From IMG/VR virus record IMGVR_UViG_3300021843_000436: a stretch of DNA of 64,000 bases. The stretch is one strand, 5' to 3'. The position numbers and the translations under genes were made by a program. Every line of letters begins with the position of its first letter. Positions within the stretch are counted from its first letter, which is position 1. Positions 5,272 to 57,889 of the stretch are shown piece after piece. The stretch is from an uncultured virus (IMG/VR IMGVR_UViG_3300021843_000436). Lineage: Duplodnaviria > Heunggongvirae > Uroviricota > Caudoviricetes. Under the pieces are notes generated by a model. The model was not told where the DNA came from. It made no database searches and saw only the letters and a program-made list of their open reading frames with translations.

Positions 5272-5345
5272 GCCCCTCAAAACTTTTCTATTTTATGGTC
5301 TTTTTCCAAGAGGGGATCATTTTAATAAGTCATGCTAGATGAAAA

Positions 5346-5736: not shown

Positions 5737-5881
5737 TTATTATAGTGAAGAAGTTATAAACTAAATAGATTCTATTATGGATTATTTTAGGAAAAGACTT
5801 ATTAACATGGCTTTGTTAAATCTAAATGTGGATATAAAATCCATAATTAAGAAAAGGACCATTAAAAAGAGGTGAAAAGCT

Positions 5882-18173: not shown

Positions 18174-19025
18174 ATGAACTCTGAAGCATTTACTCATCCT
18201 GAATTAAATGAAACTTATGAAAAATTGTATTTAGGAAATTTGATTAAATATTTGGAATCCAAAAATGAAAATAAATTAGTTGGGCTACTAAAGGATTCTA
18301 TCTGCTGTATTACTACATCTACTAATTTTTCTAAGATTAGGTGGGATGGTTTTAGTGCTGAGGTTTATTTCCATGTTCCTGTTGGCAAAATTGGAGACAT
18401 AAATGTGGAAGATAGAAAGAAGCTAAAAACGTATTGCAATGATGTTATGCCAAAGAGTTATGGATATGACATAATGAAAGTTGAGATCATACCAAACACT
18501 GAAGCAGATGGAACGATGTCAAGAGAACTGACTCGCCTCCAGGAGCAAATTCAACGAAGTTCTTCGCTTGATATTTTACCTTCAGAGTTAATTGAAAAAG
18601 GAAAAGATATGGCAAATGTATATTTATATTTATATTGCGTAGAGAATTCCTTGAGGTTATTCATTGAAAAAATAGGGCAGGATAAATTTGGCAATGACTA
18701 CCTCAATTCTTTAAGTCTTAGGGCAGATACACGAAGGAAAATTACATCAAGAAAGGAGGGAGAAGATAAGAATAAATGGCTAAGAATCAGAGGAGATTCA
18801 GACATTTTCTATATGGATTTTGAAGAACTAGGCAGCATAATTCAAAATAATTGGGAAATATTTAAAGATTATTTTCCCTCAATGGCATGGATTATGCAGA
18901 AAATTGAAGAATTAGTGGTTTGCAGAAATCTAGTCGCACATAATAGCTACATTGGATTGGATGAGCGTGAGCTAATATCTTCGTATTATAAAAGTATTTT
19001 AAAGCAAATAGGGTCATGCATATGA
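18174..19025 (+). CDS. Swt1-like HEPN-domain protein (moron)
   Basis: YLYCVENSLRLFI...MDFEELGSII..NWEIFKDYF...RNLVAHN (RxxxxH); AT-rich, CG present, own upstream TTTAAATA box. Confidence 0.8.
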   Translation: MNSEAFTHPELNETYEKLYLGNLIKYLESKNENKLVGLLKDSICCITTSTNFSKIRWDGFSAEVYFHVPVGKIGDINVEDRKKLKTYCNDVMPKSYGYDIMKVEIIPNTEADGTMSRELTRLQEQIQRSSSLDILPSELIEKGKDMANVYLYLYCVENSLRLFIEKIGQDKFGNDYLNSLSLRADTRRKITSRKEGEDKNKWLRIRGDSDIFYMDFEELGSIIQNNWEIFKDYFPSMAWIMQKIEELVVCRNLVAHNSYIGLDERELISSYYKSILKQIGSCI

Positions 19026-23569: not shown

Positions 23570-26059
23570 ATGCCTAATTTATATGTTTTTTATAAAGGGA
23601 ATACTGCTCCCTCTGGTTGGACCAGGACCACCACTTATGATGGCAGATATGCTAGATGTGGCAGCACTCATGGAGCTACTGCAGGCAATTCCACTCACAC
23701 TCACACTCTATCATCTTATACAGTAGCCAATGGCACCCAGGTGGGCTGGACCACTAAATCAGATTCTGGCTACATGTCAGTCCATAACCACACCATGACC
23801 ATGAACTCCTGCAGCTCTGATAATAATGATCCTCCATATTATACTTTATCATTAATATACATCGATGCCAGCACTTTTGAGTCCAATGTGAAAGCTTTCC
23901 CCTCTGGTGTAGTGGTGGCTTCTTCTGCAGCTATATCCCATAGTGATTTTACCAGGGAGACAGCCCTGGATTCAAGATTTATCAAGCTGGGAGATTATGG
24001 TTCCACAGGAGGCAGGAGTGCCACCACTGCAGGACATTCCTGCAGCTTTACCCTGGATGCCAAAACACCAGCCTCAATGACTGGAAACTCCTGGTCATCC
24101 ACTGCCAGGGGCTGCAATAATGGAAGCCATTCTCACACTCTATCCACTACTTCAGACACTTCCACCACCCTGCCAAAAAAAGTAACCACCAGGCTCTATA
24201 CTGCAAATAAAACCACTACCAGCATTCCAGTTAATGTGGTCTGCTTCTTTGATGGCACTCCCAGTTCCAAGTGGACAGCCATTACAGCCTGGAATGATGC
24301 TTGCATCTATGGAGGGGATTCAAATCCAACAGTGGATGGCTCAGACACCCACACTCATGGGGCTATGTCTGGCACCAGCTCATCCATAACAGATGGAGCC
24401 TATGATTATGGTCAAACAGGCACTGCTGCTTATTGTACTGCTCACACCCATAGCCATGCAGTCTCAGGGATTAATCTGTCCACTGGGAATCACCTGCCTC
24501 CTGTGGTTATGCTGGTGCCCTACTATCTTAACACCCAGATGGTGCCCCAGCAGACCTTGGATAAGACCTGCAGCATAGATATGGTACTGAAAAGGGTCCA
24601 GACCACCACAGCCTCTGTGGATATCGTTGTCAAAAAGAGAGACATTGACACCACAGCAAATGTGGACATGCTGCTGAAGAAGGCCCAGGCCATTGACTGG
24701 CAGGTGGACCTGGCCATGAAGAAGGCCCAGGATGCCACTCTTGAGATGAACTTCCTAGCCAGAAAAGCCCTGGACATGGGCTATGACTCTGATATCCTCA
24801 TGAGGAAGGCCCTGACCCTGGACTATGAGACAGATCTCCTGGTGAAGAAAGCTCAGGAGCAGGATTATAACGGGGATCTCCTGGTAAAGAAGGCCCAGGA
24901 TCTCACCTGTGAGGCTGACCTCCTGATGAAGAAAGCTCAGGAGCAGACCTATGCCACTGATCTGCTGATGAAGAAAGCCTTGGACTCCACCTATGGCATG
25001 GATCTCCTGGCCAAAAAGACAGTAGAAAATGAATATCAGGCTTCAATGTTATTGATTTCAGGCAGAAAAATAGAATACACTGCTGGCCTGAAAATTATAA
25101 AAGCCCTGGATTTAAATTATGATGCAAACATCCTCCTGCAGAAGAGAGGAGTAGAGGCCACCTATGAAATGGCAGCCTCCCTGAAGAAGAGTCTGGAGCT
25201 GGGTTATGGGGTGGATCTTGATATTCAAAGGGCCTTTGAGACTTCTGCAAACATAAACATCCTCCTGAAAAAGCAGGGCTCCCTAGACTTTGCTGTTGAT
25301 CTTCTTATGCTGAAGAGAGGAGTGGAGCTGGGCTATACTGCAGGATTGACCCTGGCTAAATTCATTCATAAGAGATACGATGCAAATCTCTCTGTAAAGA
25401 AGCCATTCTCTCAGGATTATGCTGCCAGTATTTTCCTGACAAATAGGCTGATGGCCACCTATTCTGCAGACATAAGCATGAGAAAGGCCCTGCAGATCCT
25501 CTATTTCATAGGGCTCCAAATGAGGAGGCCCTGGGACAAAACCTATGCTGCAAACCTCCTGGTGGAGAAGTCTCTGGAGGCCAGCTATGAGATGGGCATA
25601 GACCTCTTCACTCTTAGTGTTATTCATTATCAAGCTACCATGAAAATCTGGGGCCATAAGGACATTCACTATGGCATGATGATGAAAACCAGAAAGGGAG
25701 ACATAGAGGCCGGTTATGGAGCCCAGATAAAGATCATTCTCCCTGAGCATAAGCCCAGGAAGCTGAGGTCCTCTGTCAGAGAAGAATATCCTGCTGTTAT
25801 CACATCCCAGGGCTCCACATACAAAAAGACTGACAGCATCCCTGGCCCCAGCATCAGACTGTCAGAGCATGAGGTGCCTCAGGAGACAGTCCTGACTCAG
25901 GGCTCTCACTATTCTCCCACTGACACTATCCCTGGACCTACCCTCAGACCAACAGAGAAAGAAGAGAAGGAAACTCCTGAATCTGAGGGATCTTCTTATT
26001 CTCCTACTAGAGAAATACAATACCAAAAGGAATTAAGGCCAGGTAAAGCCCAGTTTTAA
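23570..26059 (+). CDS. Fibre-like virion protein: collar/HxH head plus about 28 14-aa repeats
   Basis: TAPSGW collar-like motif, several HTH/HNH/HSH motifs, repeats such as AQEQDYNGDLLVKK, and three C-terminal QGS.YSPTD.IPGP-like repeats. Confidence 0.7.
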   Translation: MPNLYVFYKGNTAPSGWTRTTTYDGRYARCGSTHGATAGNSTHTHTLSSYTVANGTQVGWTTKSDSGYMSVHNHTMTMNSCSSDNNDPPYYTLSLIYIDASTFESNVKAFPSGVVVASSAAISHSDFTRETALDSRFIKLGDYGSTGGRSATTAGHSCSFTLDAKTPASMTGNSWSSTARGCNNGSHSHTLSTTSDTSTTLPKKVTTRLYTANKTTTSIPVNVVCFFDGTPSSKWTAITAWNDACIYGGDSNPTVDGSDTHTHGAMSGTSSSITDGAYDYGQTGTAAYCTAHTHSHAVSGINLSTGNHLPPVVMLVPYYLNTQMVPQQTLDKTCSIDMVLKRVQTTTASVDIVVKKRDIDTTANVDMLLKKAQAIDWQVDLAMKKAQDATLEMNFLARKALDMGYDSDILMRKALTLDYETDLLVKKAQEQDYNGDLLVKKAQDLTCEADLLMKKAQEQTYATDLLMKKALDSTYGMDLLAKKTVENEYQASMLLISGRKIEYTAGLKIIKALDLNYDANILLQKRGVEATYEMAASLKKSLELGYGVDLDIQRAFETSANINILLKKQGSLDFAVDLLMLKRGVELGYTAGLTLAKFIHKRYDANLSVKKPFSQDYAASIFLTNRLMATYSADISMRKALQILYFIGLQMRRPWDKTYAANLLVEKSLEASYEMGIDLFTLSVIHYQATMKIWGHKDIHYGMMMKTRKGDIEAGYGAQIKIILPEHKPRKLRSSVREEYPAVITSQGSTYKKTDSIPGPSIRLSEHEVPQETVLTQGSHYSPTDTIPGPTLRPTEKEEKETPESEGSSYSPTREIQYQKELRPGKAQF

Positions 26060-27204: not shown

Positions 27205-27951
27205 GTGAAATTGATGGCTGAGAGACCCCTACTGAAATATTACTGGGTGAAGGTCCTTCCAGATGGTAGGACCTGCATTCCTCAATTTAAGCCTGACACT
27301 GGAGAGGAGATTCAATGGGGTGAGAGCCAGGTGGCCCTCTCTAAGATTCTTCTTATGCCCTTTGATCCAGAGCTGGCTGAGCTGGTCTATAAGGTCAGTA
27401 ATGGTGAGATCTGGCCAGAGGCTTCAGACAGAGCTGTGGTAGAGGTCTCAGTCAGCCCTGAGGACCAGGTGGAAGTTTACAGAAGAGGATACATCACTAT
27501 CTGGACTGATTATGAATGTGAAGTTTGTGGTGCCTCTTTTAAGTGGGATGGCCAGGGCAGGCTCACATGTCCCTCCTGTGGCACCAGAAATGAATGGCAA
27601 TGTCTGAGATGTGGTGCCAGAGACCTGGGAGAATATCACTGTGATAGATGTGATCACACTTGGAAGAGAGAAGGCCCCTGGATTCCAGGAGCAGATGTCC
27701 TTTGTCCTATTTGCAAACAGTCAGACAAAGTGAAGGCCCAGGGCATAATCAAGGATAAGCCTATCTTTCTGACAAAGGGTGAGGTCAGGTGCCCTGATTG
27801 TGAAGATGAAGGCCATCCTGAGGGACTGGAAAAGATTGAATGGCTTCATCTCAAAGAGCACCAGGATCATCATATCAATTATTATATAAAAGTAGCTGGA
27901 AAATTTGAGATGGAGATTGCAGATGACAAAACAGAGATGCACACACTATGA
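27205..27951 (+). CDS. Multi zinc-ribbon protein
   Basis: CEVC, CPSC, CLRC, CDRC, CPIC, CPDC. Confidence 0.7.
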   Translation: MKLMAERPLLKYYWVKVLPDGRTCIPQFKPDTGEEIQWGESQVALSKILLMPFDPELAELVYKVSNGEIWPEASDRAVVEVSVSPEDQVEVYRRGYITIWTDYECEVCGASFKWDGQGRLTCPSCGTRNEWQCLRCGARDLGEYHCDRCDHTWKREGPWIPGADVLCPICKQSDKVKAQGIIKDKPIFLTKGEVRCPDCEDEGHPEGLEKIEWLHLKEHQDHHINYYIKVAGKFEMEIADDKTEMHTL

Positions 27952-30149
27952 GCAACGTCTATTGTTTTTGGAAGGGTGGCACTGCTCCATCTCCCTGGGC
28001 CAAAAAGACATACTGGGACGGCTCCTATGTTAAGCTGAGCAATACTCAAGCTAATCATGGAGTGACTGGTGGTGCTGGAAACCACACTCATAATGGCTCC
28101 AGTAACTGGAGCATTAGCAGCTGCAATTATGGTGGTGATGTAGCTACATCTGGAGGCACCTCCATGATGACTCCTCACACCCACCCAGCCCCTTCTTCTG
28201 TAACTGTTAGCTCATCAAATAACGATCCATCTTATTACACTCTGGAGTTAATTTATACTGATTATGACACCTGGGAGAATACTGACAGGACACTTCCTGC
28301 AGGAGCTGTGATCCTATCCCAGTCTGCTCTTAACACCAGTGACTGGACTCAAATCTCCAGATTCACTTCTGCAGATGGGAGACTCATTAAGCTTGGCACA
28401 GCAGGCTCCACTGGTGGAAGGGATGAACACACCCATGATGTCACTGCCACACTGGGAAGTGGTGGCTCATATACTGGAGTCTTGGCCCCTAACATGGGCT
28501 CAGTCACTAACTATGTAGCCCACACCCACACCATATCAGTCACCACAGCCTCTAAAAATCATTGGCCAAGGCATGTAAAGACCAGGCTCTATCAGGTGGA
28601 CACTACCACTGACAAAACAATGGCAGGGGCCATTTTGTTCTTTGATCAGACCCCTTCATCAAACTGGGAGCTGGCCAGCAGCAGCTTTAATGGCTGCTTC
28701 CTGTGCTCCAATGATGAGAGTGTGACTGTCTATGGCACTAACACTCACGATCATCTCAGTATTTCAGGAACATCTTCAAGCTACAGTGCTGGCACATTCT
28801 CCTGCTTCAGGAGTGCTCCAGATGTCCAGGGTGCTGTCAATCCACATAGTCACACCTTCAGCTTTAACCTGAATAGTGCCAGTCATGAGCCACAGTATGT
28901 CTATTTGGTGCCCTACAGATTGAAGAACACCCTTTTGCACATCAATGTCCAGGATAAGACTTACTCTTTGGACATGGTGACAAAGAAGGTCCAGGATAAA
29001 ACTTACACTTCCAGTATTAGAATGAGGGCCTCCAATTCTGCCATCTATACTCCTGATATCATAATGAAGAAAGTCCAGACCCTGGGCTATAATGCCAGTC
29101 TTCTGCTCAAAGAGGTCAATGAGACCTCTTTTGATATGGACACCAGGCTGCTGGGCAGATTTTGGGCTCAGTATAAGATGGGAATTAACCTGACCTATAA
29201 TGCTGCAGGCTATAGCATGGGCCTGAGGCTGGTCAGGCCCTATGGTCCCACTGACACTGTAATTAACACCCTTTATCATTCCTGGATTGACCAGCTGAAT
29301 AAAGTCTCCATGAAAATGGATAACATGGTCCTGGCTAACAGGATTGAATATGCCATAGACCAGGAGCTGGATAACAGATGGGGCAAAGTCCTGGACCTGC
29401 CCAGGATGCTGGATGAGACAGATACTCATTACAGAAAGAGGCTGCAGGCAGCCACAAAGATCTTGACTGGCTGTGGTACTAAAGCCAGCTGTGAGGATAT
29501 CCTTAGCTTTTTGGTGGATCAGCCTGACACTGCCAGGATAGAGCAGGGTGAACCAGGAAAAATCAGAATCTACTGGGACACTGACGAAGCCTGCAGGAAA
29601 GGGAAGGAACTGGATAGCCTCATCAGCATGTTAATGCCAAAGATGCTGGCTGCTGGTGTCGAATATACCATTTATCACCCATTCATAGATTACCAGATGG
29701 GGATGTCCATCATAGGTCCTGCTTTTGCTCATTATAACATGGACCTGCTGCTGAAGAAGCTAAATTTAGATTGCAGCTGGACCATGAGGACCAGGATAGT
29801 CCTGCAGCAGAATCTGGACCTCCAGATGGATCTCCTCCTGAAGAGACTGATCGATAAGAATTACCATGCAAACCTGATCCTTCTGGGCAGCCCAGATAAG
29901 AACTATCAGATGGACCTACTGGTAGAAAGAGCCCTGGACATGGATTATGAGATAGACATGCTCCTCAGGAAGCTGCAGAATTTAAATTATAATATTAGCA
30001 TGATCCTGCAGAAGAGGAATATCTCAAAAGCCTACCAGATAAACCTCCTGGCCAGGAAGACAAAGAGACTGTTTTACTCTGCAAATTCCACCATCAAGGC
30101 TGTCCGGGGTGCTGGTTATGGCATAGATATCAAGGTGGTGAGCATTTAA
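27948..30149 (+). CDS. Fibre-like protein with embedded baseplate wedge (P2 gpI/Mu gp48-like) domain
   Basis: N-terminus paralogous to 23570 protein; ELDNRWGKVLDLPRMLDETDTHYRKRL...GTKAS flanked by 7 and 11 14-aa repeats. Confidence 0.7.
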   Translation: MSNVYCFWKGGTAPSPWAKKTYWDGSYVKLSNTQANHGVTGGAGNHTHNGSSNWSISSCNYGGDVATSGGTSMMTPHTHPAPSSVTVSSSNNDPSYYTLELIYTDYDTWENTDRTLPAGAVILSQSALNTSDWTQISRFTSADGRLIKLGTAGSTGGRDEHTHDVTATLGSGGSYTGVLAPNMGSVTNYVAHTHTISVTTASKNHWPRHVKTRLYQVDTTTDKTMAGAILFFDQTPSSNWELASSSFNGCFLCSNDESVTVYGTNTHDHLSISGTSSSYSAGTFSCFRSAPDVQGAVNPHSHTFSFNLNSASHEPQYVYLVPYRLKNTLLHINVQDKTYSLDMVTKKVQDKTYTSSIRMRASNSAIYTPDIIMKKVQTLGYNASLLLKEVNETSFDMDTRLLGRFWAQYKMGINLTYNAAGYSMGLRLVRPYGPTDTVINTLYHSWIDQLNKVSMKMDNMVLANRIEYAIDQELDNRWGKVLDLPRMLDETDTHYRKRLQAATKILTGCGTKASCEDILSFLVDQPDTARIEQGEPGKIRIYWDTDEACRKGKELDSLISMLMPKMLAAGVEYTIYHPFIDYQMGMSIIGPAFAHYNMDLLLKKLNLDCSWTMRTRIVLQQNLDLQMDLLLKRLIDKNYHANLILLGSPDKNYQMDLLVERALDMDYEIDMLLRKLQNLNYNISMILQKRNISKAYQINLLARKTKRLFYSANSTIKAVRGAGYGIDIKVVSI

Positions 30150-43806: not shown

Positions 43807-43836
43807 CCATCATGTTAAAGCAAACCTTTGGAGGCC

Positions 43837-44547
43837 ATGACAGGGTATTTAGTTAAAGCTCAAAATTTGTCTCAAGCCTGGGAGGAGGGCCTTAGACTGA
43901 TATGGGATCAGGGAGACTTTGTGGGAGATCAAAGAGGCTCAGACACTATGGAGCTGCTGAGCCTGATGACGGTGATCCCTTATGGAAAAATCAATCTCCC
44001 TAAGCTCTATCCTCATAAAGAAAGAGCCTTGAAGGATTACAGGGAGCAACTATGTCATCCAGATTTATCCACTGGATTCATATACACCTATGGAAATAGA
44101 ACCCAAGCATGGGGCCATGAAGCTGGCACCCCTGTTAATCAGATTGATTATGCCATTAAGCAGCTGAGAGAAAGTCCATCCAGCAGAAGGGCAGTGGCCA
44201 GCACATGGCTTCCCACATTCGACTGCATGAGATCTGAAGTCCCATGCATGATGGTGGTCCAGTTTATTCTCAGACATTCAGATCTAACCCTAGACGTTTT
44301 CTTCAGAAGCCATGACTTTTATGGGGCCTATCCAGCCAATGTCTATGGGCTCTTTGGCCTCCTGGAAATGGTGGCAGATAAGCTATACGCAAAGCCTAAG
44401 GAAATTTGTGCTATTTCAGCCTCAGCTCATGTCTATGATTGGGACTGGCCATTATGGGCCAGAGTCCTGGGTGAGGAAGAGCTGCCTCCAGTTTGCGTCC
44501 AGGCTGGAATGAGTCTGGCAAATCTAAGGGAGGCTGCTATAGCATGA
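43837..44547 (+). CDS. thyA: Thymidylate synthase, methanogen-type
   Basis: FIYTYGNR, SRRAV, VPC (catalytic Cys), FRSHD..GAYPAN, SAHVY. Confidence 0.88.
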   Translation: MTGYLVKAQNLSQAWEEGLRLIWDQGDFVGDQRGSDTMELLSLMTVIPYGKINLPKLYPHKERALKDYREQLCHPDLSTGFIYTYGNRTQAWGHEAGTPVNQIDYAIKQLRESPSSRRAVASTWLPTFDCMRSEVPCMMVVQFILRHSDLTLDVFFRSHDFYGAYPANVYGLFGLLEMVADKLYAKPKEICAISASAHVYDWDWPLWARVLGEEELPPVCVQAGMSLANLREAAIA

Positions 44548-45031: not shown

Positions 45032-46057
45032 TTAACATTCATTTGGATCATAAACACAATCAAGAGGATTTTTATCATCCCTAAACTGGACAAACCTGGG
45101 ATGCCTGAATTTTCCTGAATCCAATCTTTGCTGGGCTTCGACAATGAAAACCCTGCCTATATAGCCCACTCTGTTTGCACTGATCTCTTCTCTGAGTGCA
45201 TCATCAAATCCAGAGCATTGGCCAAATTCCACCAGCTCACCCTCCCAGTATTGACCAAATTTGATGGAGCCTATCTGCCCTTTGTATTTGGTCTCAGAGA
45301 CAGATCCATCCACCTTCTGAGAGGTCTCCTTTGCATCCTCATAACCCATGACTATCACATCATGGGTCTCCTGCCTCTTCACTTTGACCCAGTTCTTCTT
45401 CTCACCGTAGAGGCCCATCTTATTCTTCAGGATGCCTCCCTCTCCACCATCATCAAAGATCTGAGCCAGAGCCTCCTCTTTATCCTCTTCCCAGACTGGT
45501 GCCAGGGTGAAATATTGACCAAAGTCATGAGCAAAGACCTCCTCCAGGATCTTCCTCCTGGCCAGATAGGGCTGAGTCCTGATGTCTTGACCATTCCAGA
45601 AAAGGATGTCAAAGACTTTATATTTAGCCCAGCCATTCTTCTCCTGCAGCTCCCAGGCCCTCTCTGGCTTTGATCCTGTGACCTCCTGGGCATTCATGCT
45701 ATTCTCTCCTAGGAGAAGCTCTCCATCAAATATGCAGCCCTGAATGGCCTCATAGAGATGTTCTTCTTCAGGGATCTGGCCCAGTAGGGAAAGCTGTGGG
45801 AAGTTCAAAGATTTATCAGTGAAAAGCTGGGTTTTCTTTGAGATGTGCCTGCTGGTGATCCTATTCTGACCCTGCAGTACATGAAGTAGCTCCCTGATCC
45901 CATCATATTTGGGCTCCAGGACCCAGCGGTCTCCCTTCCCTTTGCATGAGAGCAGCTCAGGTTTAAAGCTGCCCCTGGCCTCTGCTGGTTTGATCTGCCT
46001 GACTATAGGCCCATCTAGGAATTGGGCTGTCTTTTGAGCTGCGATTGTCTCTAACAC
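45032..46057 (-). CDS. ATP-dependent DNA ligase
   Basis: EPKYDGIR, DGEL, FDIL, EGGILK, WVKVK, FRHPRF..R.DK. Confidence 0.93.
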   Translation of the reverse strand: MLETIAAQKTAQFLDGPIVRQIKPAEARGSFKPELLSCKGKGDRWVLEPKYDGIRELLHVLQGQNRITSRHISKKTQLFTDKSLNFPQLSLLGQIPEEEHLYEAIQGCIFDGELLLGENSMNAQEVTGSKPERAWELQEKNGWAKYKVFDILFWNGQDIRTQPYLARRKILEEVFAHDFGQYFTLAPVWEEDKEEALAQIFDDGGEGGILKNKMGLYGEKKNWVKVKRQETHDVIVMGYEDAKETSQKVDGSVSETKYKGQIGSIKFGQYWEGELVEFGQCSGFDDALREEISANRVGYIGRVFIVEAQQRLDSGKFRHPRFVQFRDDKNPLDCVYDPNEC

Positions 46058-46615: not shown

Positions 46616-47332
46616 CTATCCTCTCCTTTTAGAAATAGTGCTCGTTATGACTTTGCAGGCTTTATCCAGCAGGATCTCCTGAGGCAGCAGTGCATCAAAA
46701 TACAACCACTTCAAAGGATTCTGCAGAGCCAGGCCCATATAGACTTCCTGGGCTTTCTGCAAAGTCTCCAGTTTCTCAAAACACTTCAGCTGACCCTCTG
46801 GCCTCTTCTTCAGTCTTTCCAGAGCCTTATCTGGTGCCAGGGTCAGAAGAATGCTGACATCAGGACAGATGTCCCATTCCTGGGTCAAGACACTGGCCAC
46901 AGGCCCCTGGTATGCCCTGGAGCTGAAGGGTGTCCACCTGTCACAGATTACCACCCTGTCATCAGCCAGGGCTGGGATTATCACATCAGCCAAATGAATG
47001 GCATGATCCAGGGTGAACTTCAGAGAAGTGATAGCCTCTGGCCTTACATTCCCTGCAGGCCAGTCAGAGATAAGGTGCTCTAGCTCACGGAAGCCCTGGA
47101 ACCTCTCAGTGGGCTCCTGGGTTACTACGACCATCTCTCCAAGATCATCCGAGAGCTTCTTCCCCAGTGTCTGGGCCAGAGTGGTCTTCCCTGTCCCATC
47201 AATTCCTTCCAGAACCACCAGGCATCCTCTACTGGCTTTTCTCAGATCCAGCCTGGTGGAGTCAGCATCATAGGTTAAAATCGATTGCAGAAGGCTGTGC
47301 CCTCTGATATTATCTTTTCCCATAAGCTGCAT
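46616..47332 (-). CDS. tmk: Thymidylate (dTMP) kinase
   Basis: LEGIDGTGKTT, TQEP, VICDRW, S.AYQG. Confidence 0.9.
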   Translation of the reverse strand: MQLMGKDNIRGHSLLQSILTYDADSTRLDLRKASRGCLVVLEGIDGTGKTTLAQTLGKKLSDDLGEMVVVTQEPTERFQGFRELEHLISDWPAGNVRPEAITSLKFTLDHAIHLADVIIPALADDRVVICDRWTPFSSRAYQGPVASVLTQEWDICPDVSILLTLAPDKALERLKKRPEGQLKCFEKLETLQKAQEVYMGLALQNPLKWLYFDALLPQEILLDKACKVITSTISKRRG

Positions 47333-47530: not shown

Positions 47531-50500
47531 CTAATCCTCCTCCATGACCTCCAGGGGCATGTCAAATTTACTGAATCTATGGACCTTTGGACTCAGGAAG
47601 AGATCCTGGGCCAGAGAGGGGATCTTCTCATCTTCAGTTACCCTGAAAAATTTTCCTCCAGTGCAAGAGACTGAGATGCTACCTGTGATGGATTTACCCC
47701 ATTTTAGTGGCCTAATCTTCGGTGAAGACATGGCTATACATTCATGGGCCTCAAAGTCATTGTATAAGACGATCCTGAAATATTCATTTTCAGCCTTAGA
47801 CCTGAATGGCCCTGCTATGTAACCCACCACCCACTGGCCTTTAGCAGAAGACTTCAGATGCCACATCACTTCATTCTCTTCCGTGGTTTTCTCCTTTGCC
47901 TGCAGCTCCTCCAGGATGTAATACCAGTATGCTCCTCTGTAGATCCAGACATTCCTGAAGCCATCCTCCAGGTTTGGAATCTGGCTCTTTGCTCTAAAGA
48001 CTCCTGAGCCATCCTCTACAGTAAAGTCCTGCATGGTGGCCTCCATGATGACCTGGGCCTTCATGACCTCACCCTCCTCCATCTGACCCAGTGTCCTAGG
48101 ATTGATGGTCTTATAATGAGGCAGTGGGATCATGGTATAGTCCTTCAGGGAGACCTCCCTGCCATCCAGACAGCCAGTGGCCTCAAAGAGCTTCTGTTTA
48201 GCATCTGTGAGGGGCTTCCCTCCTTTGATCCTGTCTATGAGCTGCTGGCCAGTCTTCAGAGCTATGCCCTTTATGCAAGTCAGCCCCAGCTGGATCTCAT
48301 CCCTCTCACCAGTGGTCTCCAGCTGTGGATGCCTTATGCTGGGCCTCCTGATGGGGATCAGCATCCTATCAGCTTCTCTCAGGATCTCCCTTCTCTCTTT
48401 GCCCTCTGTTTTAATGTTCATCCAGGTAGCTGCAGCCAGGGCTGGATTCAGCATCTTCAGATAGATGGTCATAAGAGAGACCCAGGCATAGGCCACTGCA
48501 TGGGATCTGTTAAATCCATAGCCAGCCCAGAGGAGGATCTCCTTCCACTGCTTCTCCTTTGCAGGGTCCTTCAGCTGCTCCTTCAGGGTACCGTCCTCCA
48601 GGGCCTGCAGCTTATCCAGCTTCTTCTTTGAGATTGCTCTCCTGGCCTGGTCTGCTTCCTGCATGGACATACCAAAGATTATATTCAGGGCCTTCAGGAC
48701 CTGCTCCTGGTAGATGATCAGTCCATAGGAGTCCTCTGTGCCCTTCATGGCCTCATAGGGCTCTCCATCCACTCTCCTCTTCTTATAGAGATCAATGAGG
48801 GGCCTGGTGCCTGGTCTATTAAGGGCCACTATTCTGACCACATCTTCAAAGTGCTCAGGAGGGACCTCCTTCATGAGCTGCTCTCCAGCCTGGGTGCCCA
48901 GCTGGAAGATGCCGTAGGGATAGAGCCTGGCAAAGAGCAGCATATCAGCTATGTCATCATTTGGCAGCTGGTGAAGCTCCCAGTCCAGCTGTTTCATGGC
49001 TGCAGGAAGGTCAACTCCCTCAGAGACAGAGGTTCTGGGCTTCAGCATCTCAGCTATAAAGTCCAGGGTATCCAGACCCAGCACATCAAATTTAGGGATG
49101 TTCAGCTCCAGGATGTCCCTCAGCTCCAGCTCTATGGCCAGCCCTGGGCCATCCTTCTTTGCCCTGGTGAGTGGGATAGTCTCTGCAATATTTGGCAGGG
49201 CCACCACACCAGCTGCATGGATTCCCTTATGCCTGATATGGCCATCCAGGTGATCAGTTAGCATCCTGATGCTTTCTGCCACTTCATCTGAGAGCTTATC
49301 AGTGAGGAGGGCCTCCTGATCCACCCTCTTCAGCCAGCAGGCATCTCTGATCATGAGCTTCTCATGCCACCTGGCATAAGTGGAGATCTGAGCTGTTTGC
49401 CTGCCCACAATATCTCCCAGGATCTGAATGGCCTCCTGCCTTCTGGACTTCTGGACATCCAAATCAAAATCTGGAGGGTCCTTTCTTCCTTCTGGGAGGA
49501 ATCTCTCAAAGAGGAGCTTTTGAGTGATGGGATTAATTCTGGTGATGTCCAGGATGTAGCTGATGAAGCTTCCTGATGCTGATCCTCTTCCAGGTCCTCT
49601 GAGGATGCCAGCCTTATCCAGCCTCTGACATAGTTCATATTCAATGATGAAATACCAGGCAAAGTCAGACTTTGTAATCCTGTCGTATTCCATATCTACC
49701 CTGGCAGCCAGAGCCTCTTCTCCTCCCATAGCTTCTAACTCTGCCTTTGGGGTTCTTCCCAAAAAGGCCAGGAAACTCTTATACACCAGCTCCCTGAAGT
49801 TGAGATGAGAGACACAATCCTTAGGAGCGGGAAAAGTCCTGGGCAGGCTAAAGTCAAAGTCAGAAGCAAACTTCCTGGTCATATCGATAACCATAGCAGC
49901 CTCATCTTCCTCCAGGCCCAGGTTTGCTATGACCTCAGCTTCACTCTGATAATAATAAGAATTGCCAGGGAAATAATCATCCTTATAGACCAGGGTCCTG
50001 TCTTTGTAGATAATGCTGGCAGCTGCCACTTTTGGACCCCTCTCATCCCAGGAGTTATAATGGGAGTCACAGGTGGCTATCACCAGGAGATCCTCTCTGC
50101 AGGCCAAGGCATAAGCCCATCTGTTAAACTCATGCTGCTGCTCCAGGTCTGGATGAGGCATGATCTCTATGACCAGTTCTCCTCCTGCTGCAGCTATCTC
50201 AGCCCAGGTCTTCATGAACCAGGCTTCAGCCTCTTCTGGGTCTTCCATCCACTTCTGGAAAAGGAGACCACCTTTGCAGGCAGTGCCAAAAGCCAACCCC
50301 TGGGCATGCTCTATGAGGTGCTGCAGAGGGATCAGGGGCTTCCTCTTAAAGTGATTCACCACAGCATCATTATGAAGATGGATCAGATTCTTCCAGCCCT
50401 CAGGAGATTTGACCCAGATGGTCATGTGGCCCTTCCCAGGACCTTCTGCCTTGTTGTCTATGGAGAGAATATAATCAATGCTACCCCATTCTTTCTTAAG

Positions 50501-51478
50501 CTGTTTTGCCACCTGAGATCTACCATTAAGCCATTCATTGAATTTCTCAGGCAATTCTTTCATAGCTTCAGTCTCTGTAACTTCGTTTGCCTTGCCCAAA
50601 GTAAGCTTAGAGAGATGCTCACCATTATGGGTCATATTCACAGTCCAGTATTTCTTTCCATTTTTGTTAGTGTCATTTTGGACTGGATGAGCATCAATGA
50701 TCACAGTGCATGAATTCTCATCTCCTTCTTCAATTTCTTGAATATAGCCCTCATAACCAATGATGGGCTGGACCCCATGCTTCCTGCAGGCTGATTCAAA
50801 CTGATATACTCCAGCCATAGTGCCATGATCAGTCAGGGCCAGGTGAGTGATCCCCAGGTTTGCTGCCACCTTTGCCATGTCCTCAGGGCTCCTGATGGAG
50901 TCTCCCACACTAAAATCACTATGGCAGTGGAGTTGTGGGATCTGATGGACCTGGGGTGGCTTTGTCCCTGGGAAATTTTCAAAGAGATATGTGAGAGCCG
51001 TCAGCAGGTCTGATCTATACATATCCTCAGTATATCGTGAATTATGGCTCAGATAATTAGGATGATAGACCATCTTATGCTCGATATTCAAAGCAGTGAG
51101 AGCTTTATCTGCAGTATTTCCCAGGGCCAGGATCAGCTTAGGCTGGAAACATTCCACCTGCTGCTTTAGGAATGACAGGCAGGAGTTAATCTCCTGGGCT
51201 CTGGGAGCCCTCAACCCTGGAGGGTGACACTTCAGGACATTGATCATAGCATAATTCTCCATCCCCAGCTCTGAGAGGAGCTTCCTGAGAGTATGCCCAT
51301 CAGGTCCACAAAATGGGACTCCTCTCTCCAGCTCCTTTTCCCTGGGAGCCTCACCCACACAAAGGAGATCCACTTTCTCAGGATCTCCTATGATGGTGCC
51401 CACCACATGGCCCTCCAGTTTGCAGACATTGCACTGCCTGATCTTCTGGCCAATTTCTTTGAGCTTCTCCATCTGCAT
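47531..51478 (-). CDS. dnaE: Family C DNA polymerase (DnaE-like) with N-terminal family-4 uracil-DNA glycosylase domain
   Basis: UDG: CNVC, VGEAP, NVLKCHPP, YHP. PHP: LHCHSDFS, ALTDHG, TCDSHY. Pol: GPGRGSASGS, FERFL, PPDFDLD, HAAG, KFDVLGL, YGFNRSHAVAY. Confidence 0.93.
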   Translation of the reverse strand: MQMEKLKEIGQKIRQCNVCKLEGHVVGTIIGDPEKVDLLCVGEAPREKELERGVPFCGPDGHTLRKLLSELGMENYAMINVLKCHPPGLRAPRAQEINSCLSFLKQQVECFQPKLILALGNTADKALTALNIEHKMVYHPNYLSHNSRYTEDMYRSDLLTALTYLFENFPGTKPPQVHQIPQLHCHSDFSVGDSIRSPEDMAKVAANLGITHLALTDHGTMAGVYQFESACRKHGVQPIIGYEGYIQEIEEGDENSCTVIIDAHPVQNDTNKNGKKYWTVNMTHNGEHLSKLTLGKANEVTETEAMKELPEKFNEWLNGRSQVAKQLKKEWGSIDYILSIDNKAEGPGKGHMTIWVKSPEGWKNLIHLHNDAVVNHFKRKPLIPLQHLIEHAQGLAFGTACKGGLLFQKWMEDPEEAEAWFMKTWAEIAAAGGELVIEIMPHPDLEQQHEFNRWAYALACREDLLVIATCDSHYNSWDERGPKVAAASIIYKDRTLVYKDDYFPGNSYYYQSEAEVIANLGLEEDEAAMVIDMTRKFASDFDFSLPRTFPAPKDCVSHLNFRELVYKSFLAFLGRTPKAELEAMGGEEALAARVDMEYDRITKSDFAWYFIIEYELCQRLDKAGILRGPGRGSASGSFISYILDITRINPITQKLLFERFLPEGRKDPPDFDLDVQKSRRQEAIQILGDIVGRQTAQISTYARWHEKLMIRDACWLKRVDQEALLTDKLSDEVAESIRMLTDHLDGHIRHKGIHAAGVVALPNIAETIPLTRAKKDGPGLAIELELRDILELNIPKFDVLGLDTLDFIAEMLKPRTSVSEGVDLPAAMKQLDWELHQLPNDDIADMLLFARLYPYGIFQLGTQAGEQLMKEVPPEHFEDVVRIVALNRPGTRPLIDLYKKRRVDGEPYEAMKGTEDSYGLIIYQEQVLKALNIIFGMSMQEADQARRAISKKKLDKLQALEDGTLKEQLKDPAKEKQWKEILLWAGYGFNRSHAVAYAWVSLMTIYLKMLNPALAAATWMNIKTEGKERREILREADRMLIPIRRPSIRHPQLETTGERDEIQLGLTCIKGIALKTGQQLIDRIKGGKPLTDAKQKLFEATGCLDGREVSLKDYTMIPLPHYKTINPRTLGQMEEGEVMKAQVIMEATMQDFTVEDGSGVFRAKSQIPNLEDGFRNVWIYRGAYWYYILEELQAKEKTTEENEVMWHLKSSAKGQWVVGYIAGPFRSKAENEYFRIVLYNDFEAHECIAMSSPKIRPLKWGKSITGSISVSCTGGKFFRVTEDEKIPSLAQDLFLSPKVHRFSKFDMPLEVMEED

Positions 51479-51868: not shown

Positions 51869-53611
51869 TTACAGAGGGGTCTCTGCTTTTTGGGCCTGAG
51901 TCTGGCTTCCCTTCTGAGCTGCCAGTCTGGACCTCAGTGCGTTGATCCTCTGCTGCTCAGATTCATTGATGGCTCCCTTTGCTGCAGGAGCCTTCTTCTC
52001 AAAGAGGCCCTTTGCAGGTCCCTTCACTGCTGCCTTCTTAGATGTAGGGGCAGGGGCCTCCTGGACAGAGGATGTCTGGGGTGCATCTATCTGGCCCTGG
52101 GCAGAAGGGACCACTTCCTTATTCAGGATCTGAGAGACAGCCTTTGCCTCATCCTGGGTTAGGATGCCAGCATCCACAGCCTCCTGTTGAGCTGGCCTGA
52201 TCTCCTCCTGGGCTCCAGGCTTTTGGAGATCCTTTGCACTGGCAATAGGTGCATCTTCTGGCAGTGGCTCCTGCTGAGCAGCTGGACCCTCATCCATCTG
52301 AGCTGCTGGAGCTTCATCCACCTGGTCTGCTGAACCTTCCTCCTCTATGCCCAGATCCTCAGGGAGATCAGGGAGCACAGAGTCCATATTCCAGAGGGCC
52401 AGTGCTATCTTAGAGATTCTCTCCTTATCATTTTGATCCACATACCTGGAGACTCTCACCAGGGCCTTAATTCTGTTAGCCAGGAAGTATGGCCTGCCCT
52501 CTATCTCTTCAAGGACTCCTCCATCCAGATAGGCAGTGTCCCTCAGCATCATGGAGGCATCAGATCCTGTCAAAGGATTATGGATCTCCATGACATAGAA
52601 TGGGCCTTTGGCACCCTCCTTCTCCACAATGGAGGTAGGTGTGCCATCCATGATGACATAACTGCCCACATAGTCAGCTATGATGTCAGGGCTGAAGTCT
52701 ATGATAGTCTCCAGGTCTGGCCAGGCCAGTGGACTCTGGTCTTTGCTCTCCTGGCAGTCTCCCACGTTGAAGAAAGTGCCCTTATCAGTCTCAGCCTGAG
52801 TGATGATAGTGTTTAACACCTTATCGTTAGGGGCATCCCACCATCTCTGAGCAAAAGTGGTGCTGGCCTCTCTGACTATGCTGCTCTCAGGGTCCTCTGG
52901 ATTCTGAATCAGCAGGGTGAGGAAGCTGGTCTCAAATTCATAATTTGATCCATCATCCCTGGTGCCCTGCTTTGTCTTTGGAGGCGTGACTCCCAGCTTC
53001 ATGACTCTATACCTGGGATCTCCAGGAACGACCTCTGGAAGCTCACTGGGATCAGCAGAATCACACTCCTTAATATTGGTCCAGCCCTGATTTTTCTCCA
53101 GTATGACATGGCAGGCTTCTCCCACTTTCACATCAGGGGCAGCACCCCATAGGATAGTCCTGATCAGCTCCCAGGCACTTCCAGGGATATCTGGCTCCAC
53201 CAGGAAAGTAACCCTCCTATAAGTGGAGTTTCTGGCAGACTTCTGGGGCTTACCCATCTCCAAGAGAATGGCCAGCTTTGGCTTCACTCCCACGTATCTC
53301 TTCTCCTGCAAGGCCCTCAGGCTCTTCAGGATCAGCTCTTCTGGTGTGACAGGGCTATTCCACTTCTCAAAGTCTCCCTTATAGGCTTGAAGCTGCATAA
53401 AGAAGTCATGTCTCACCTTAGGCTCAGCCTGGCCAGTGTCTCCAGCTATCTTCTTCACCACTGCCAGATCTTCCTTCATGGAAGCCTCTATTCCAGCATG
53501 GTCTTCACCCAGTCTCATGAGCTTCAACTGAACATAGAACTTAGGTGTCTGAAACTTTGCAGCCAAATTTTCGATAGCGCTCCCTGTCATTGTAATTCTC
53601 CTTTCAATCAT
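51869..53611 (-). CDS. Probable multi-OB-fold ssDNA-binding (RPA-like) protein
   Basis: IRTILWG, TKQGTRDDGS.Y and EKEGAKGPFY-type OB hairpins; acidic disordered C-terminus; replication context. Confidence 0.5.
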   Translation of the reverse strand: MIERRITMTGSAIENLAAKFQTPKFYVQLKLMRLGEDHAGIEASMKEDLAVVKKIAGDTGQAEPKVRHDFFMQLQAYKGDFEKWNSPVTPEELILKSLRALQEKRYVGVKPKLAILLEMGKPQKSARNSTYRRVTFLVEPDIPGSAWELIRTILWGAAPDVKVGEACHVILEKNQGWTNIKECDSADPSELPEVVPGDPRYRVMKLGVTPPKTKQGTRDDGSNYEFETSFLTLLIQNPEDPESSIVREASTTFAQRWWDAPNDKVLNTIITQAETDKGTFFNVGDCQESKDQSPLAWPDLETIIDFSPDIIADYVGSYVIMDGTPTSIVEKEGAKGPFYVMEIHNPLTGSDASMMLRDTAYLDGGVLEEIEGRPYFLANRIKALVRVSRYVDQNDKERISKIALALWNMDSVLPDLPEDLGIEEEGSADQVDEAPAAQMDEGPAAQQEPLPEDAPIASAKDLQKPGAQEEIRPAQQEAVDAGILTQDEAKAVSQILNKEVVPSAQGQIDAPQTSSVQEAPAPTSKKAAVKGPAKGLFEKKAPAAKGAINESEQQRINALRSRLAAQKGSQTQAQKAETPL

Positions 53612-54111: not shown

Positions 54112-54762
54112 ATGACACGAACTGATGAAAATTTTAATGTGCTTCAGGAGACTGTGCCACATGGGATCTCAGCCTCCAGAATCCATGCCTGGATGTTTTG
54201 CTCCAGGAGCCACCAGCTGAAATATGACATGGGCCTCCCAGGAATCACAGGACCTGCAGCCAGGATAGGTGTGAAGATGCATGATAGAATAGCCCAGGCC
54301 CTGCAAAATGGCACTGAGCCCCATCTGCCCGGTAAATGGCTGGCCAACTATCATGAGATGTGCCAGGACCTGCAGCTCTCAGATAACCTGCTGATAGAAA
54401 AGCAACTGGAGGGGCAGGCCCAGGGAGAGGCCATCCTGGGCTATTTGGATTTGATAGACCTTGATCAATGTTTCATCTTAGACTGGAAGACTGGCAAAGT
54501 GCATGGCTATCCTGTCCAGGCTTACATCTATAGCATGCTGGTGGATCAGCTCCTGGGTGAGCCTTTGCCCATGTATTATGCTTACATCAAGCATGGAAAA
54601 TTGATCCCCACCACTAAGGAAGATTTGATCAAAGGGAGAAGAATCTTCCAGAGATTTGTTAATCGCGACTCCAGATATTTACCATGTTTTAATGGCGAAT
54701 CCAATAAGTGCTTAAAATGCAGCTACAGGGTGCCCTGTGCTATGGTTTGTCAGGGCCTTTAG
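54112..54762 (+). CDS. Cas4/RecB-like PD-(D/E)xK exonuclease
   Basis: ISASRI...C, GYLDLI, DWKTG, QAYIY, C-terminal CLKC..PC. Confidence 0.85.
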   Translation: MTRTDENFNVLQETVPHGISASRIHAWMFCSRSHQLKYDMGLPGITGPAARIGVKMHDRIAQALQNGTEPHLPGKWLANYHEMCQDLQLSDNLLIEKQLEGQAQGEAILGYLDLIDLDQCFILDWKTGKVHGYPVQAYIYSMLVDQLLGEPLPMYYAYIKHGKLIPTTKEDLIKGRRIFQRFVNRDSRYLPCFNGESNKCLKCSYRVPCAMVCQGL

Positions 54763-54861: not shown

Positions 54862-55096
54862 TGGCAGGGGTCAAACATCGAACTTTACGGAGTTCACACC
54901 GTTATTTCGATATGCAGAGACACCTGGCGGGGGTGGCAGGGGTACCCCTCCCCTAACCTTTACTATACTCTCCCTCCTATACTATTTTCCTTACTCTTCT
55001 AATAGAGGAGGGGTACCCCTGCCATGTCTGCCAGGCAGCTCCTGTTATTGAAATAACGACGTGAACTGTGTAAAACCTAGAGATTGACCCCTGCCA
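54862..55096. repeat. Large imperfect inverted-repeat element, copy B (putative origin/second cis site)
   Basis: 54930-55036 is identical to 5570-5676 (107 bp, direct orientation); arms TGGCAGGGGTCAA...TTGACCCCTGCCA; extra tandem TGGCAGGGG pair at 55151-55169. Confidence 0.8.
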
Positions 55097-55194
55097 ATAG
55101 ATAGCAATAGACACTATTTTGATTTAGAATAAAATTTGCCCCGCCCTTTCTGGCAGGGGTGGCAGGGGTGGTCCTCAAAGACTTTTCTAAAAAG

Positions 55195-55805: not shown

Positions 55806-56927
55806 TCATAAAATTGGAATGTCAGATTTTTTCAATCCATCTTTTGTTTTGAAATATTCTGAAAGCTCTCCGTTTCTGATGAATTCCCTCGATTTGCTGA
55901 ATTCATTAGAACTTTGATAGTATTCATGAAGCCGATTTGCTGAATTGAACACTTGATTTGGGTATTCTTCACAGCAATCGCTATAAGAAGCTATGAAATC
56001 GTCTGTATTTTTGCCCTTGCATATAGGGCAGTCACAATTTAATGAAGTTCCAAAATCTATCCAATCTTGGAATCTATGGAAAGCTAAAGGAATTGGATCA
56101 AAGCGTTTCGTAGATCCTATTGGTTTAGGACTGAGTATTTCGCTTCCTGTTCTTGGAGGAACATAACGGCCAATTCTTACGCTAAAAGAGTCTATACCCC
56201 ATTTCTGCAGTAAATGCATGGTCGATGTAGGATTTGTCCTAGCGAGTTCACGAGGAACTCCTGACATTTGGAGAAGCACATTAGTCTCTCTATTTTCCCA
56301 TAGGAGGCGATAATTTTGAACATTTTTATGGATTGGTCTGTATATTAATCCAATAGTATGTATTTGATCTGTCTCAGAATGTTCTAGTAATGCCAAGAAC
56401 CTTTCATGAAAAACATCGATATCAAGCCCCATATCCAAATAGATTAACGGTTCTCGATTCTCTGACAAGACTTCTTCAGCAAAACTTTCTGCAATTTCTT
56501 CAAAATCTGGCGCAGAAGGAGGAATATTTGGTATGCTGATAAAATCCAGATTGCTCATACGTTGAAGCTCTAATAATTGCTTGATACTGCTATCATTTAG
56601 ATTTGTGCTGGACGGCAGCTGTGGGTAATATCGTTTTATTGTATAATCCATTTTATCTGAATAGAAGTCTATAGTCCTTTTCCTGTTATAAAAAGACCCA
56701 TTTTCTTCCATGAATTTTTTCCAGTTATCACTATAAAATTGTCCGACAATTTCAGATAATTCATTATCCAAAGGCGGTTCAAAAGGTAACTTAGCTTTAT
56801 ATTGGAATTCGGATGAAGTTACCGCCCTGTTGGGTGTCTTAAAGGTGCCACGATCTGTAATTATAGATAACGCTCTCCCTCCAAAACGATCTAATTCACC
56901 CTCAATAGATATACGTGTGATTCTCAT
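55806..56927 (-). CDS. Divergent TGT (tRNA-guanine transglycosylase)-fold protein
   Basis: RGTFKTP start, GIDSFS, CDCPIC...H zinc site; TAATG-coupled to the upstream gene; AT-rich with normal CG. Confidence 0.6.
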   Translation of the reverse strand: MRITRISIEGELDRFGGRALSIITDRGTFKTPNRAVTSSEFQYKAKLPFEPPLDNELSEIVGQFYSDNWKKFMEENGSFYNRKRTIDFYSDKMDYTIKRYYPQLPSSTNLNDSSIKQLLELQRMSNLDFISIPNIPPSAPDFEEIAESFAEEVLSENREPLIYLDMGLDIDVFHERFLALLEHSETDQIHTIGLIYRPIHKNVQNYRLLWENRETNVLLQMSGVPRELARTNPTSTMHLLQKWGIDSFSVRIGRYVPPRTGSEILSPKPIGSTKRFDPIPLAFHRFQDWIDFGTSLNCDCPICKGKNTDDFIASYSDCCEEYPNQVFNSANRLHEYYQSSNEFSKSREFIRNGELSEYFKTKDGLKKSDIPIL

Positions 56928-57889
56928 TATGCCCTCTTCCGTGCCCAATTAGGAAGCACCTTTTCTTTTATTCTAGATTCTATAGTATAGCCTTGATATT
57001 TCTTATAGACATCTTTTAGAATACCATCATTTCCAAGCTCATCCACACCTCTTCTCCATGAACGTAGGTCTTCTTTCAAAGCATCTGGCAATGAATTATA
57101 AATTCTTCCAGCCTCCATTTTTCCCTTCTCTGTAAGGATGAAGCTTTCTTTATCAGATGAACGCTTCCCCTTTATAATGATTAAACCTTGCCGCTCTAAG
57201 GAATATAATGATTGATCTATATCAAAACTATAAGGGCCATAATAGTAGGGAATAAAATTTGGGGATATTGCAGGGACATTAAATTCCCTGAGTTTTTCTT
57301 TAAATAATAAGAATGATGCTTTCATAAGGCTGATAGCCCCTTTGACCGGTCTTTTTGATGAACATAGCAGCACTAGAATAAGCTCTGTCGGATCAAGCGG
57401 GCGAATGCTAAATCCTTTTAAAATTTCTCTAATTTTTGGGAGCGATTTCTCACTAAAATAAACCATTCCACAATTAGGGCATCCAAATCCGTCGAACTCT
57501 CCAAATACCTCTCCTGATATCTCTAAAGGGTATATGCCAGGCTGCAAGTTTGCTTTTTCGCATCGAGAGCACAAGTCTTTTCGTCTATTTCGTCGCATGT
57601 ACCGGTTTTGGCGATAAATTTTATCTTTTACTGAATGGTTGTTGTTACCTTCTTTCCATGTTGTTATAACATTGAAATGACATGGCTTATTGTCCGCTAT
57701 TACAACGACACATCCTTGCTGATACTTATCACCATCGCCATTATCATTATTTGATTTCGTTCCACTAACTATGGCATCCCTTATATCCCCCTCGCTTAAG
57801 CTATCATTAATCATTTCAATTATAGCATGGAAAGATAAACTGAGTTGGCATCTGATTTTCTCTACAGCAATCTGGCTTTCGAGATGCAT
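56927..57889 (-). CDS. DUF4258-like + YgiT-type Zn finger + Panacea/SocA-like wHTH fusion
   Basis: LSFHAIIEM..SLSEGDIRDAI..G...VITTW; CSRC...CPNCGMVYF; LMKASFL...FIPYYYGPYS..I...VYKKY. Confidence 0.6.
   Translation of the reverse strand: MHLESQIAVEKIRCQLSLSFHAIIEMINDSLSEGDIRDAIVSGTKSNNDNGDGDKYQQGCVVVIADNKPCHFNVITTWKEGNNNHSVKDKIYRQNRYMRRNRRKDLCSRCEKANLQPGIYPLEISGEVFGEFDGFGCPNCGMVYFSEKSLPKIREILKGFSIRPLDPTELILVLLCSSKRPVKGAISLMKASFLLFKEKLREFNVPAISPNFIPYYYGPYSFDIDQSLYSLERQGLIIIKGKRSSDKESFILTEKGKMEAGRIYNSLPDALKEDLRSWRRGVDELGNDGILKDVYKKYQGYTIESRIKEKVLPNWARKRA

Follow-up and report, generated by a model that had tools for sequence, protein, structure and literature searches.

The window analysed here is a 64,000-nucleotide stretch of DNA from an uncultured virus of the Caudoviricetes (IMG/VR record IMGVR_UViG_3300021843_000436), and the gene that concerns us lies on its minus strand at positions 47531 to 51478. 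It is a single open reading frame (ORF) of 1315 amino acids that encodes a family C DNA polymerase fused at its N-terminus to a uracil-DNA glycosylase (UDG) of family 4, as assigned by domain profiles and a fold match. The UDG domain (residues 1–170; 50969–51478, minus strand like all of the domains that follow) precedes a PHP domain (residues 178–545; 49844–50947) that has all nine metal ligands, a polymerase core of palm, thumb, and fingers (residues 587–1040; 48359–49720) that contains GS632–633, D672, D674, D798, and H993, and a C-terminal region (47534–48358) with an HhH domain (residues 1041–1110), an OB fold (about residues 1135–1195), and approximately 120 unmodelled residues that may form a second OB. 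Embedded in the PHP domain is a swappable insert of about 100 residues (247–345; 50444–50740), predicted to fold as a three-stranded sheet plus helices and weakly matching Arm-DNA-bind_3. The order UDG, PHP, Pol3 core, HhH, and OB is that of DnaE and not that of PolC.

The initial annotation had read this single ORF as a family C replicase joined to a family-4 UDG, with a metal-intact PHP domain and a DnaE core, and this is borne out by profiles, residues, and fold. D672, D674, D798, and G632–S633 are invariant in the polymerase alignment (Pfam PF07733, 156 bits), and the nine PHP ligands, in the pattern HHDHEHCDH that we take to be that of Mycobacterium tuberculosis DnaE1, are present in all 26 full-length rows, so that the catalytic residues are intact as judged from the alignment. 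A fold search with the whole predicted structure recovers the expected folds, that of a family-4 UDG included. The PHP domains of the M. tuberculosis and Thermus aquaticus DnaE enzymes are active in 3′–5′ proofreading, and by analogy we infer that the viral PHP domain is an intrinsic 3′–5′ proofreader. Compared with these bacterial DnaE1 proteins, to which it is 22–26% identical, the window polymerase has an additional UDG and PHP insert and lacks a conserved beta-clamp motif and the DnaB, DnaG, and beta partners, and it falls below the bacterial DnaE1 equivalog cut-offs (427 versus 1002 bits for NF004226 and 414 versus 434 bits for TIGR00594). A fusion created by frameshift or assembly was ruled out, as the open frame is repeated in assemblies at 38–92% identity. 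In the ESM Atlas, the C-terminal 220 residues match unnamed viral clusters (0.91–0.93), one of which has 15% tRNA_anti-codon OB, which we treat only as a lead. Contigs of a relative that is 95–99% alike span the polymerase gene in RNA library X1, in which the structural genes have a similar depth and DNA may be present, so that this coverage is no more than a possible sign of transcription.

Relatives of the fusion and their phylogeny

The rarity that was implied for this architecture proves to have been overstated. A domain-architecture search finds the fusion in both orientations: among the best 150 matches in a set of 50%-identity representatives, the UDG lies before the polymerase in 20 and after it in 37 (57 of the 150 fused), is missing from 90, and three are fragments, with the counts inflated toward fusions because the query included the UDG. 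The C-terminal form is known as DnaEX, a family C polymerase with a C-terminal PF03167 UDG (Timinskas et al., 2014, PMC3919608), which according to that account differs from the window enzyme in that the UDG takes the place of the OB and CTD at the C-terminus and in that the hosts are bacteria. The N-terminal form is in GenBank for the cultured Methanobacterium virus PhiF1 (MK994522; host Methanothermobacter thermautotrophicus), which is also a head-tail virus of a methanogen. Its ORF58 and ORF57 are annotated as an N-terminal family-4 UDG and PHP followed by a DnaE core, and a methanogen-type thymidylate synthase (ThyA) and an anaerobic reductase are nearby, as in the window virus. Unlike the window enzyme, that of PhiF1 is encoded by two genes split at the PHP/palm boundary (UDG-PHP in ORF58, the core in ORF57), contains an intein-like insertion, has no PHP insert, has GLNPG as motif 1, and is only about 31% identical. 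The split appears to be natural because in a relative, L412, two other genes lie between the halves. The UDG-PolA enzymes of SP15-like and SPO1-like phages, as described (PMC13697223; PMC10201439), belong to family A with its unrelated polymerase fold and come from viruses of bacteria with thymine-modified genomes that co-encode PolX, while the window virus shows no sign of base modification.

Phylogenies of both domains were constructed from rows dereplicated at 80% and subsampled by hand from 339, with long rows left out of the later trees and of the approximately unbiased (AU) tests. The window lineage is a long-stemmed clade (support 100/100) whose viruses share, in part or whole, the gene order exonuclease, single-stranded DNA-binding protein (SSB), polymerase. 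In the careful 40-row polymerase tree this clade, PhiF1, and the other N-terminal fusions fall in a 20-row group (86/97, unstarred), and the quick polymerase trees give the same grouping twice (91 and 95) and no resolution once. In a quick UDG tree, weak with its 139 columns, 36 of the 38 N-terminal domains come together with a support of 89, and the host UDG and the majority of C-terminal domains fall elsewhere; the C-terminal fusions form their own group in the trees of both domains. The AU tests, however, are compatible with other placements: joining the window clade to the C-terminal group was not rejected (p 0.135), nor was joining it to four bacterial DnaE, where the likelihood is 0.36 above that of the free tree (p 0.52). 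A single origin with PhiF1 is suggested by three of four polymerase trees and the UDG tree and is not upheld by the AU tests. Several of the other N-terminal fusions are accompanied by a methanogen-type ThyA, over the cut-off in L412 and L135 and just under it in L381 and L386, or by Hef-like nucleases. L380–L383, L386, and L390 are viral contigs of 36–41% GC with an N-terminal UDG-DnaE, several of which have a terminase 33–36% identical to that of the window, a methanogen-type ThyA, or a conserved upstream protein of about 425 residues, and they are probable methanogen viruses.

The host and its provirus

The claim that this is an archaeal virus is supported by the genome nearest to the window. 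G001 is a single 3.6-Mb contig, 98% complete, that holds a 92%-identical copy of the polymerase within a provirus with which the window is collinear in blocks of 95–99% identity. The provirus ends in perfect 78-bp direct repeats, 83,963 bp apart, that correspond to the 3′ part of tRNA-Leu(CAA), and the integrase adjoins one of the copies. The flanking DNA is archaeal: it encodes purL, purQ, methanogenesis markers 2 and 4, both of which exceed their cut-offs, and PolD DP2 with a score of 1633 bits, and the same locus as L094 carries the title Methanothrix sp. In addition, a second genome of this family contains a small element with homologues of the viral integrase and Prim-Pol, at 62% and 65% identity, respectively. 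The virus encodes a terminase, portal, major head protein, tail sheath, and baseplate wedge and is therefore contractile-tailed. These data support a temperate, contractile-tailed head-tail virus of the archaeon Methanothrix, a main acetate-using methanogen of digesters.

A bacterial host, with the archaeal link being an artefact of binning or assembly, has to be weighed against this assignment. PF07733 matches are found in five of 392 Methanosarcinia genomes, in two of 105 Methanotrichales genomes, and in three of 401 genomes of a phylum sample, and besides G001 they comprise a DnaE2-like gene on a contig of 69% GC, a phage-like contig of 22% GC, contigs of 1.7 kb and 4.2 kb, and one marginal 24-bit match. 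Of the five Methanosarcinia matches, the four outside G001 are on contigs of bacterial or phage appearance or on ones whose shortness prevents their being placed, so that G001 is the sole chromosomal case among the 392. A member of a 38%-identical sister cluster, on a 3.1-kb contig, is labelled 'Synergistales bacterium', which also counts against an archaeal host, and the neighbours of another N-terminal fusion (L388) include DnaB, DnaG, and RecA genes. Nevertheless, G001 is a closed contig in which the provirus lies between archaeal flanks and has exact repeats within a host tRNA, the viral ThyA is of the methanogen type, and integrase and Prim-Pol homologues occur inside another chromosome of the family; these findings already contradict a bacterial host, which we consider highly improbable. 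Separately, the bacterial or phage genes inside archaeal bins on G373 C10 (L461–L463; 69% GC) and G052 C106 (L464; 22% GC) are contamination, from which false calls of archaeal DnaE would arise. A DNA search for CRISPR spacers was uninformative: 105 genomes gave no evident spacer against 20 kb of the window, and 392 gave none against L383, with two candidates scored per genome and matches of 25–30 nt left uninspected.

Several other features of these genomes were observed. The record G002 (49,463 bp, called complete with terminal repeats) was ruled out as an independent complete genome as it equals the window between its two palindromic repeats (99.998% identical); because the integrase, Prim-Pol, and NrdD are missing from it, the record probably represents a unit of the assembly, or else a circle formed by deletion, and not the whole 84-kb genome. 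The element at G003 C62:63641–81156 (L534, L535) is compact and encodes a Prim-Pol/helicase that shares 65% identity with that of the window, together with two integrases and four tail genes, and no capsid or polymerase was seen in it, making it a candidate satellite or remnant. Low-GC genes at 55806–57889 and 18174–19025 of the window are absent from the G001 provirus; they encode a 380-residue unassigned protein, a 320-residue protein that contains DUF4258/DUF4364 and weakly matches DarG, and a 283-residue ORF, and are probably defence or toxin-antitoxin cargo. Paralogous tail-fibre-like proteins at 23570–26059 and 27948–30149 have 42-nt (14-residue) tandem repeats in their C-terminal parts.

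The UDG domain and the PHP insert

The window UDG retains all four cysteines for a 4Fe-4S cluster (C16, C19, C84, and C100), and residues E41, G42, E47, F54, N80, and H155 of Tth UDG map to E43, A44, E49, F56, N80, and H139, the last of which was assigned by the HP motif plus the fold match. As reported for Tth UDG, these residues form the pocket and N89 places the water, and k2 (0.23 per s) decreases to 0.025 in N89A and to 7e-5 in H155S, reductions given as about 6- to 9-fold and >1000-fold (PMC5387724). In the window UDG, Asn89 is replaced by Leu, the conserved Gly after GEAP by Arg (G46R), and there is an Asn at position 141 (A141N), so that this allele departs from family 4 at Asn89 of motif 3 and at GE(A/G)PG of motif 1. 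The 78%-identical sisters keep N, G, and A at these three positions, and N89 and Gly46 are present in sisters P0004–P0007 and P0122–P0125. The dN/dS of the domain is 0.11 versus G001, 0.04 versus L134, and 0.10 versus L120, which is in the range of the polymerase domains, and by this measure the UDG is under purifying selection. The simplest reading of these sequences is that the domain is probably a retained but weakened glycosylase, one that probably still binds uracil but cuts it more slowly than do the 78%-identical sisters.

Several points weigh against an active UDG. G46R, N89L, and A141N each occur in just one of 35 dereplicated N-terminal UDG domains, that of the window's sub-lineage, and the segment before HP has 19 residues compared to 29–38 in five other N-terminal fusions; because of these changes the domain may be dead or retuned. 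The dN/dS values of the close pairs are based on few changes (five synonymous versus two non-synonymous, and seven versus one), while in the third pair dS has reached 1.39, close to saturation. A family-4 UDG is also encoded by the host itself, and N4-like PolAs are described as keeping an inactivated UDG, proposed to be a processivity module (PMC10201439). The main rival to a weakened glycosylase is that the UDG of this sub-lineage has lost its catalytic activity and persists as a structural module that grips DNA or confers processivity in place of the missing clamp. This would fit with the three substitutions being fixed in all seven sub-lineage sequences examined, the shortened domain, and the lack of any clamp gene or clamp motif among those searched for (see below), and purifying selection is equally compatible with a structural role. 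On the other hand, the four cysteines and the Tth residues of largest effect (E41, E47, F54, N80, and H155) are all kept, N89 being the mildest position tested, and pocket residues are usually lost in inactivated fusions, at least as these are treated in PMC10201439. A dead domain is a doubtful, though serious, possibility and we retain the weakened glycosylase as the preferred reading.

The PHP insert changes in a different manner. It is 23–33% identical between proteins with 91–98% identical cores, and 25 proteins fall into 10 insert types at a 70% threshold, with three relatives having none. Synonymous saturation is confined to the insert and, to a lesser degree, to residues 546–590; the DNA alignment of the window with G001 breaks at 50446–50745; and replaced blocks with the same ends are seen in two independent assemblies. 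For these reasons the variation of the insert is, on the sequence evidence, cassette exchange and not drift. A second exchanged block, at the PHP-palm junction (window 49709–49843, residues 546–590), is 64–67% identical to close relatives versus 97–99% in its flanks, and its boundary is the site where PhiF1-like viruses split the gene. The insert is modelled with good confidence as strands 256–262, 277–284, and 287–296, three helices, and a further strand. A likeness to arm-binding domains was first noticed by eye and the Pfam search was carried out afterwards; the integrase Arm-type family PF13356 matches at 17.1 bits (cut-off 27; E 0.006), with a match in one of five inserts and one of 28 whole proteins. 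There was no PDB sequence match and no consistent Pfam match to the insert, which fold searches with the whole model barely probe. That the insert may bind DNA is no more than a lead, and the swapping could just as well reflect evasion of a host defence that recognises the polymerase.

Replication partners and a proposed mechanism

The genes surrounding the polymerase suggest what might act with it. Upstream, on the same strand, is a 580-residue tandem-OB SSB with three beta domains, resembling RPA and LEF-3 (51869–53611, minus strand), and an SSB gene is similarly placed in four related lineages, with L120, L134, L014, L135, and L137 as the loci. Its model has a helical head and the three beta domains (pLDDT 74), and the top Foldseek matches are LEF-3, RPA, and CST (E about 1e-7, with low TM-scores of 0.17–0.28); the ESM Atlas gave nothing above 0.84, and an SSB profile run over 392 genomes found only G001 and a degraded piece in G079. 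Genes for thymidylate kinase (TMK; 46616–47332) and ATP-dependent DNA ligase (45032–46057) are also on the minus strand, and on the plus strand are those for methanogen-type ThyA (43828–44547; TIGR03283, 176.5 bits versus a cut-off of 174.55), a PD-(D/E)XK, Cas4-like exonuclease divergent from the SSB-polymerase unit (54112–54762), a Prim-Pol fused to a D5-like helicase as a candidate primase-helicase (2911–5271), and a tyrosine integrase whose G001 orthologue adjoins the 78-bp tRNA-Leu repeat (1–873). The last two had been noted in the initial annotation, and both were found. The provirus also encodes an SNF2 helicase and, beyond the window, NrdD, a dCMP deaminase-like protein, and a DHH protein.

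No viral clamp had been visible in the window, and this held for the two clamp families searched, clamp-loader families lying outside the search: there is no beta-clamp (PF00712) in G001 or G002, and PCNA is present only as a host gene. A clamp helps to replicate an 84-kb genome, and the polymerase could borrow host PCNA (and RFC) via a non-canonical motif to give a hybrid bacterial-archaeal replisome, with QDLF at 1291 resembling what we presume to be the clamp-binding consensus. However, no PCNA-interacting protein (PIP) box was found in the window polymerase or SSB, QDLF is in just two of 10 clade proteins checked, across which a beta-clamp motif is not conserved, and both of the PIP-pattern matches in relatives fall inside the PHP domain. 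We judge recruitment of host PCNA to be quite unlikely.

We propose, as the overall explanation and one that we favour as fairly likely, that the replicative polymerase of this Methanothrix virus is a self-proofreading DnaE with a UDG that travels with the fork. The polymerase core would extend primers that probably come from the viral Prim-Pol/D5 helicase, the PHP domain would remove mismatches, and the co-encoded tandem-OB protein would coat single-stranded DNA, with the replicase running clamp-free, as neither a viral clamp gene nor evident clamp binding was found. The N-terminal UDG would move with the fork and remove uracil, and the resulting abasic sites would be passed to a host AP endonuclease and the viral ligase. 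Uracil would originate from the dNTP supply of the virus itself or from cytosine deamination. The substrates of class III reductases are triphosphates, so that dUTP can be among their products. The selective reason may be that dNTP synthesis by the virus itself, through a class III reductase, dCMP deaminase-like protein, ThyA, and TMK, makes uracil likely to arise, and that template uracil inhibits host PolD, as reported for the family D polymerase (PMC3627576). Built-in uracil surveillance is plausible by analogy with SP15-like phage PolA enzymes, in which the fused UDG is reported to excise template uracil (PMC13697223).

It should be noted that some features of the provirus do not favour this mechanism. 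The SSB gene of G001 is broken by a 1.2-kb insertion, and the viral ORFs that were scanned revealed neither PolX nor an AP endonuclease. Matches to the trimeric dUTPase family, the one dUTPase type covered by the search, are found only outside the provirus, and a 104-residue ORF beside the deaminase and NrdD (L005:3196–3510, beyond the window), which weakly resembles PRA-PH/MazG-like proteins at an E-value of 0.01 that falls short of the cut-off, could possibly remove dUTP as a nucleotide-pool sanitiser. The insertion in the SSB gene (G001 C1:2578629–2579842, at window 52401–52404) has terminal inverted repeats and transposase-like frames, and the G001 provirus may be defective.

A palindromic non-coding element that contains repeated TGGCAGGGGT boxes occurs twice in the window, at 5322–5760, directly after the Prim-Pol/helicase gene, and at 54862–55192, 49,360 bp from the first and 93% identical to it over 170 nt. 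Further boxes are at 2861 and 55156, and a scaffold gap of 100 N (5470–5569) whose sides overlap lies inside the first copy. These elements are candidates for a replication origin or a recombination site. A broader view would be that clamp-free family C replicases are a recurrent and overlooked strategy of methanogen head-tail viruses, and that the PHP cassette of this lineage is a DNA-binding module with a three-stranded sheet, exchanged among relatives, that ties the replicase to virus-specific sequence, with the TGGCAGGGGT-box elements as candidates. We consider this combined proposal to be unlikely. If true, the cassette would allow the polymerase itself to select its origin.

Each element of the system has a precedent, and what is documented here is the chromosomal copy bounded by attachment repeats, the altered UDG allele, and the swapped PHP insert. 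We found no description in the literature of a family C polymerase or an N-terminal UDG-DnaE in an archaeal virus, and PMC12926913, PMC9796341, PMC8651126, PMC13465236, PMC12451623, PMC13573593, PMC11705971, and PMC7824862 gave nothing relevant in term look-ups, although genes of this kind could appear in the supplementary tables that accompany PMC11348598, PMC13573593, and PMC11705971. According to two surveys, family C polymerases are among viruses exclusive to bacteriophages (PMC4889955) and archaeal viruses encode family B enzymes (PMC11348598). A DnaE in a provirus bounded by such repeats in a closed archaeal chromosome is direct counter-evidence to both statements as they are given there, and is stronger than a lone GenBank annotation. 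Two questions are thereby made testable, with natural alleles that have or lack Asn89, and that have different PHP inserts or none, as ready controls: how a bacterial-type replicase works without a beta-clamp in an archaeal cell, and whether the unrelated fold of family C has likewise acquired the replication-coupled uracil excision that was just demonstrated in family A.

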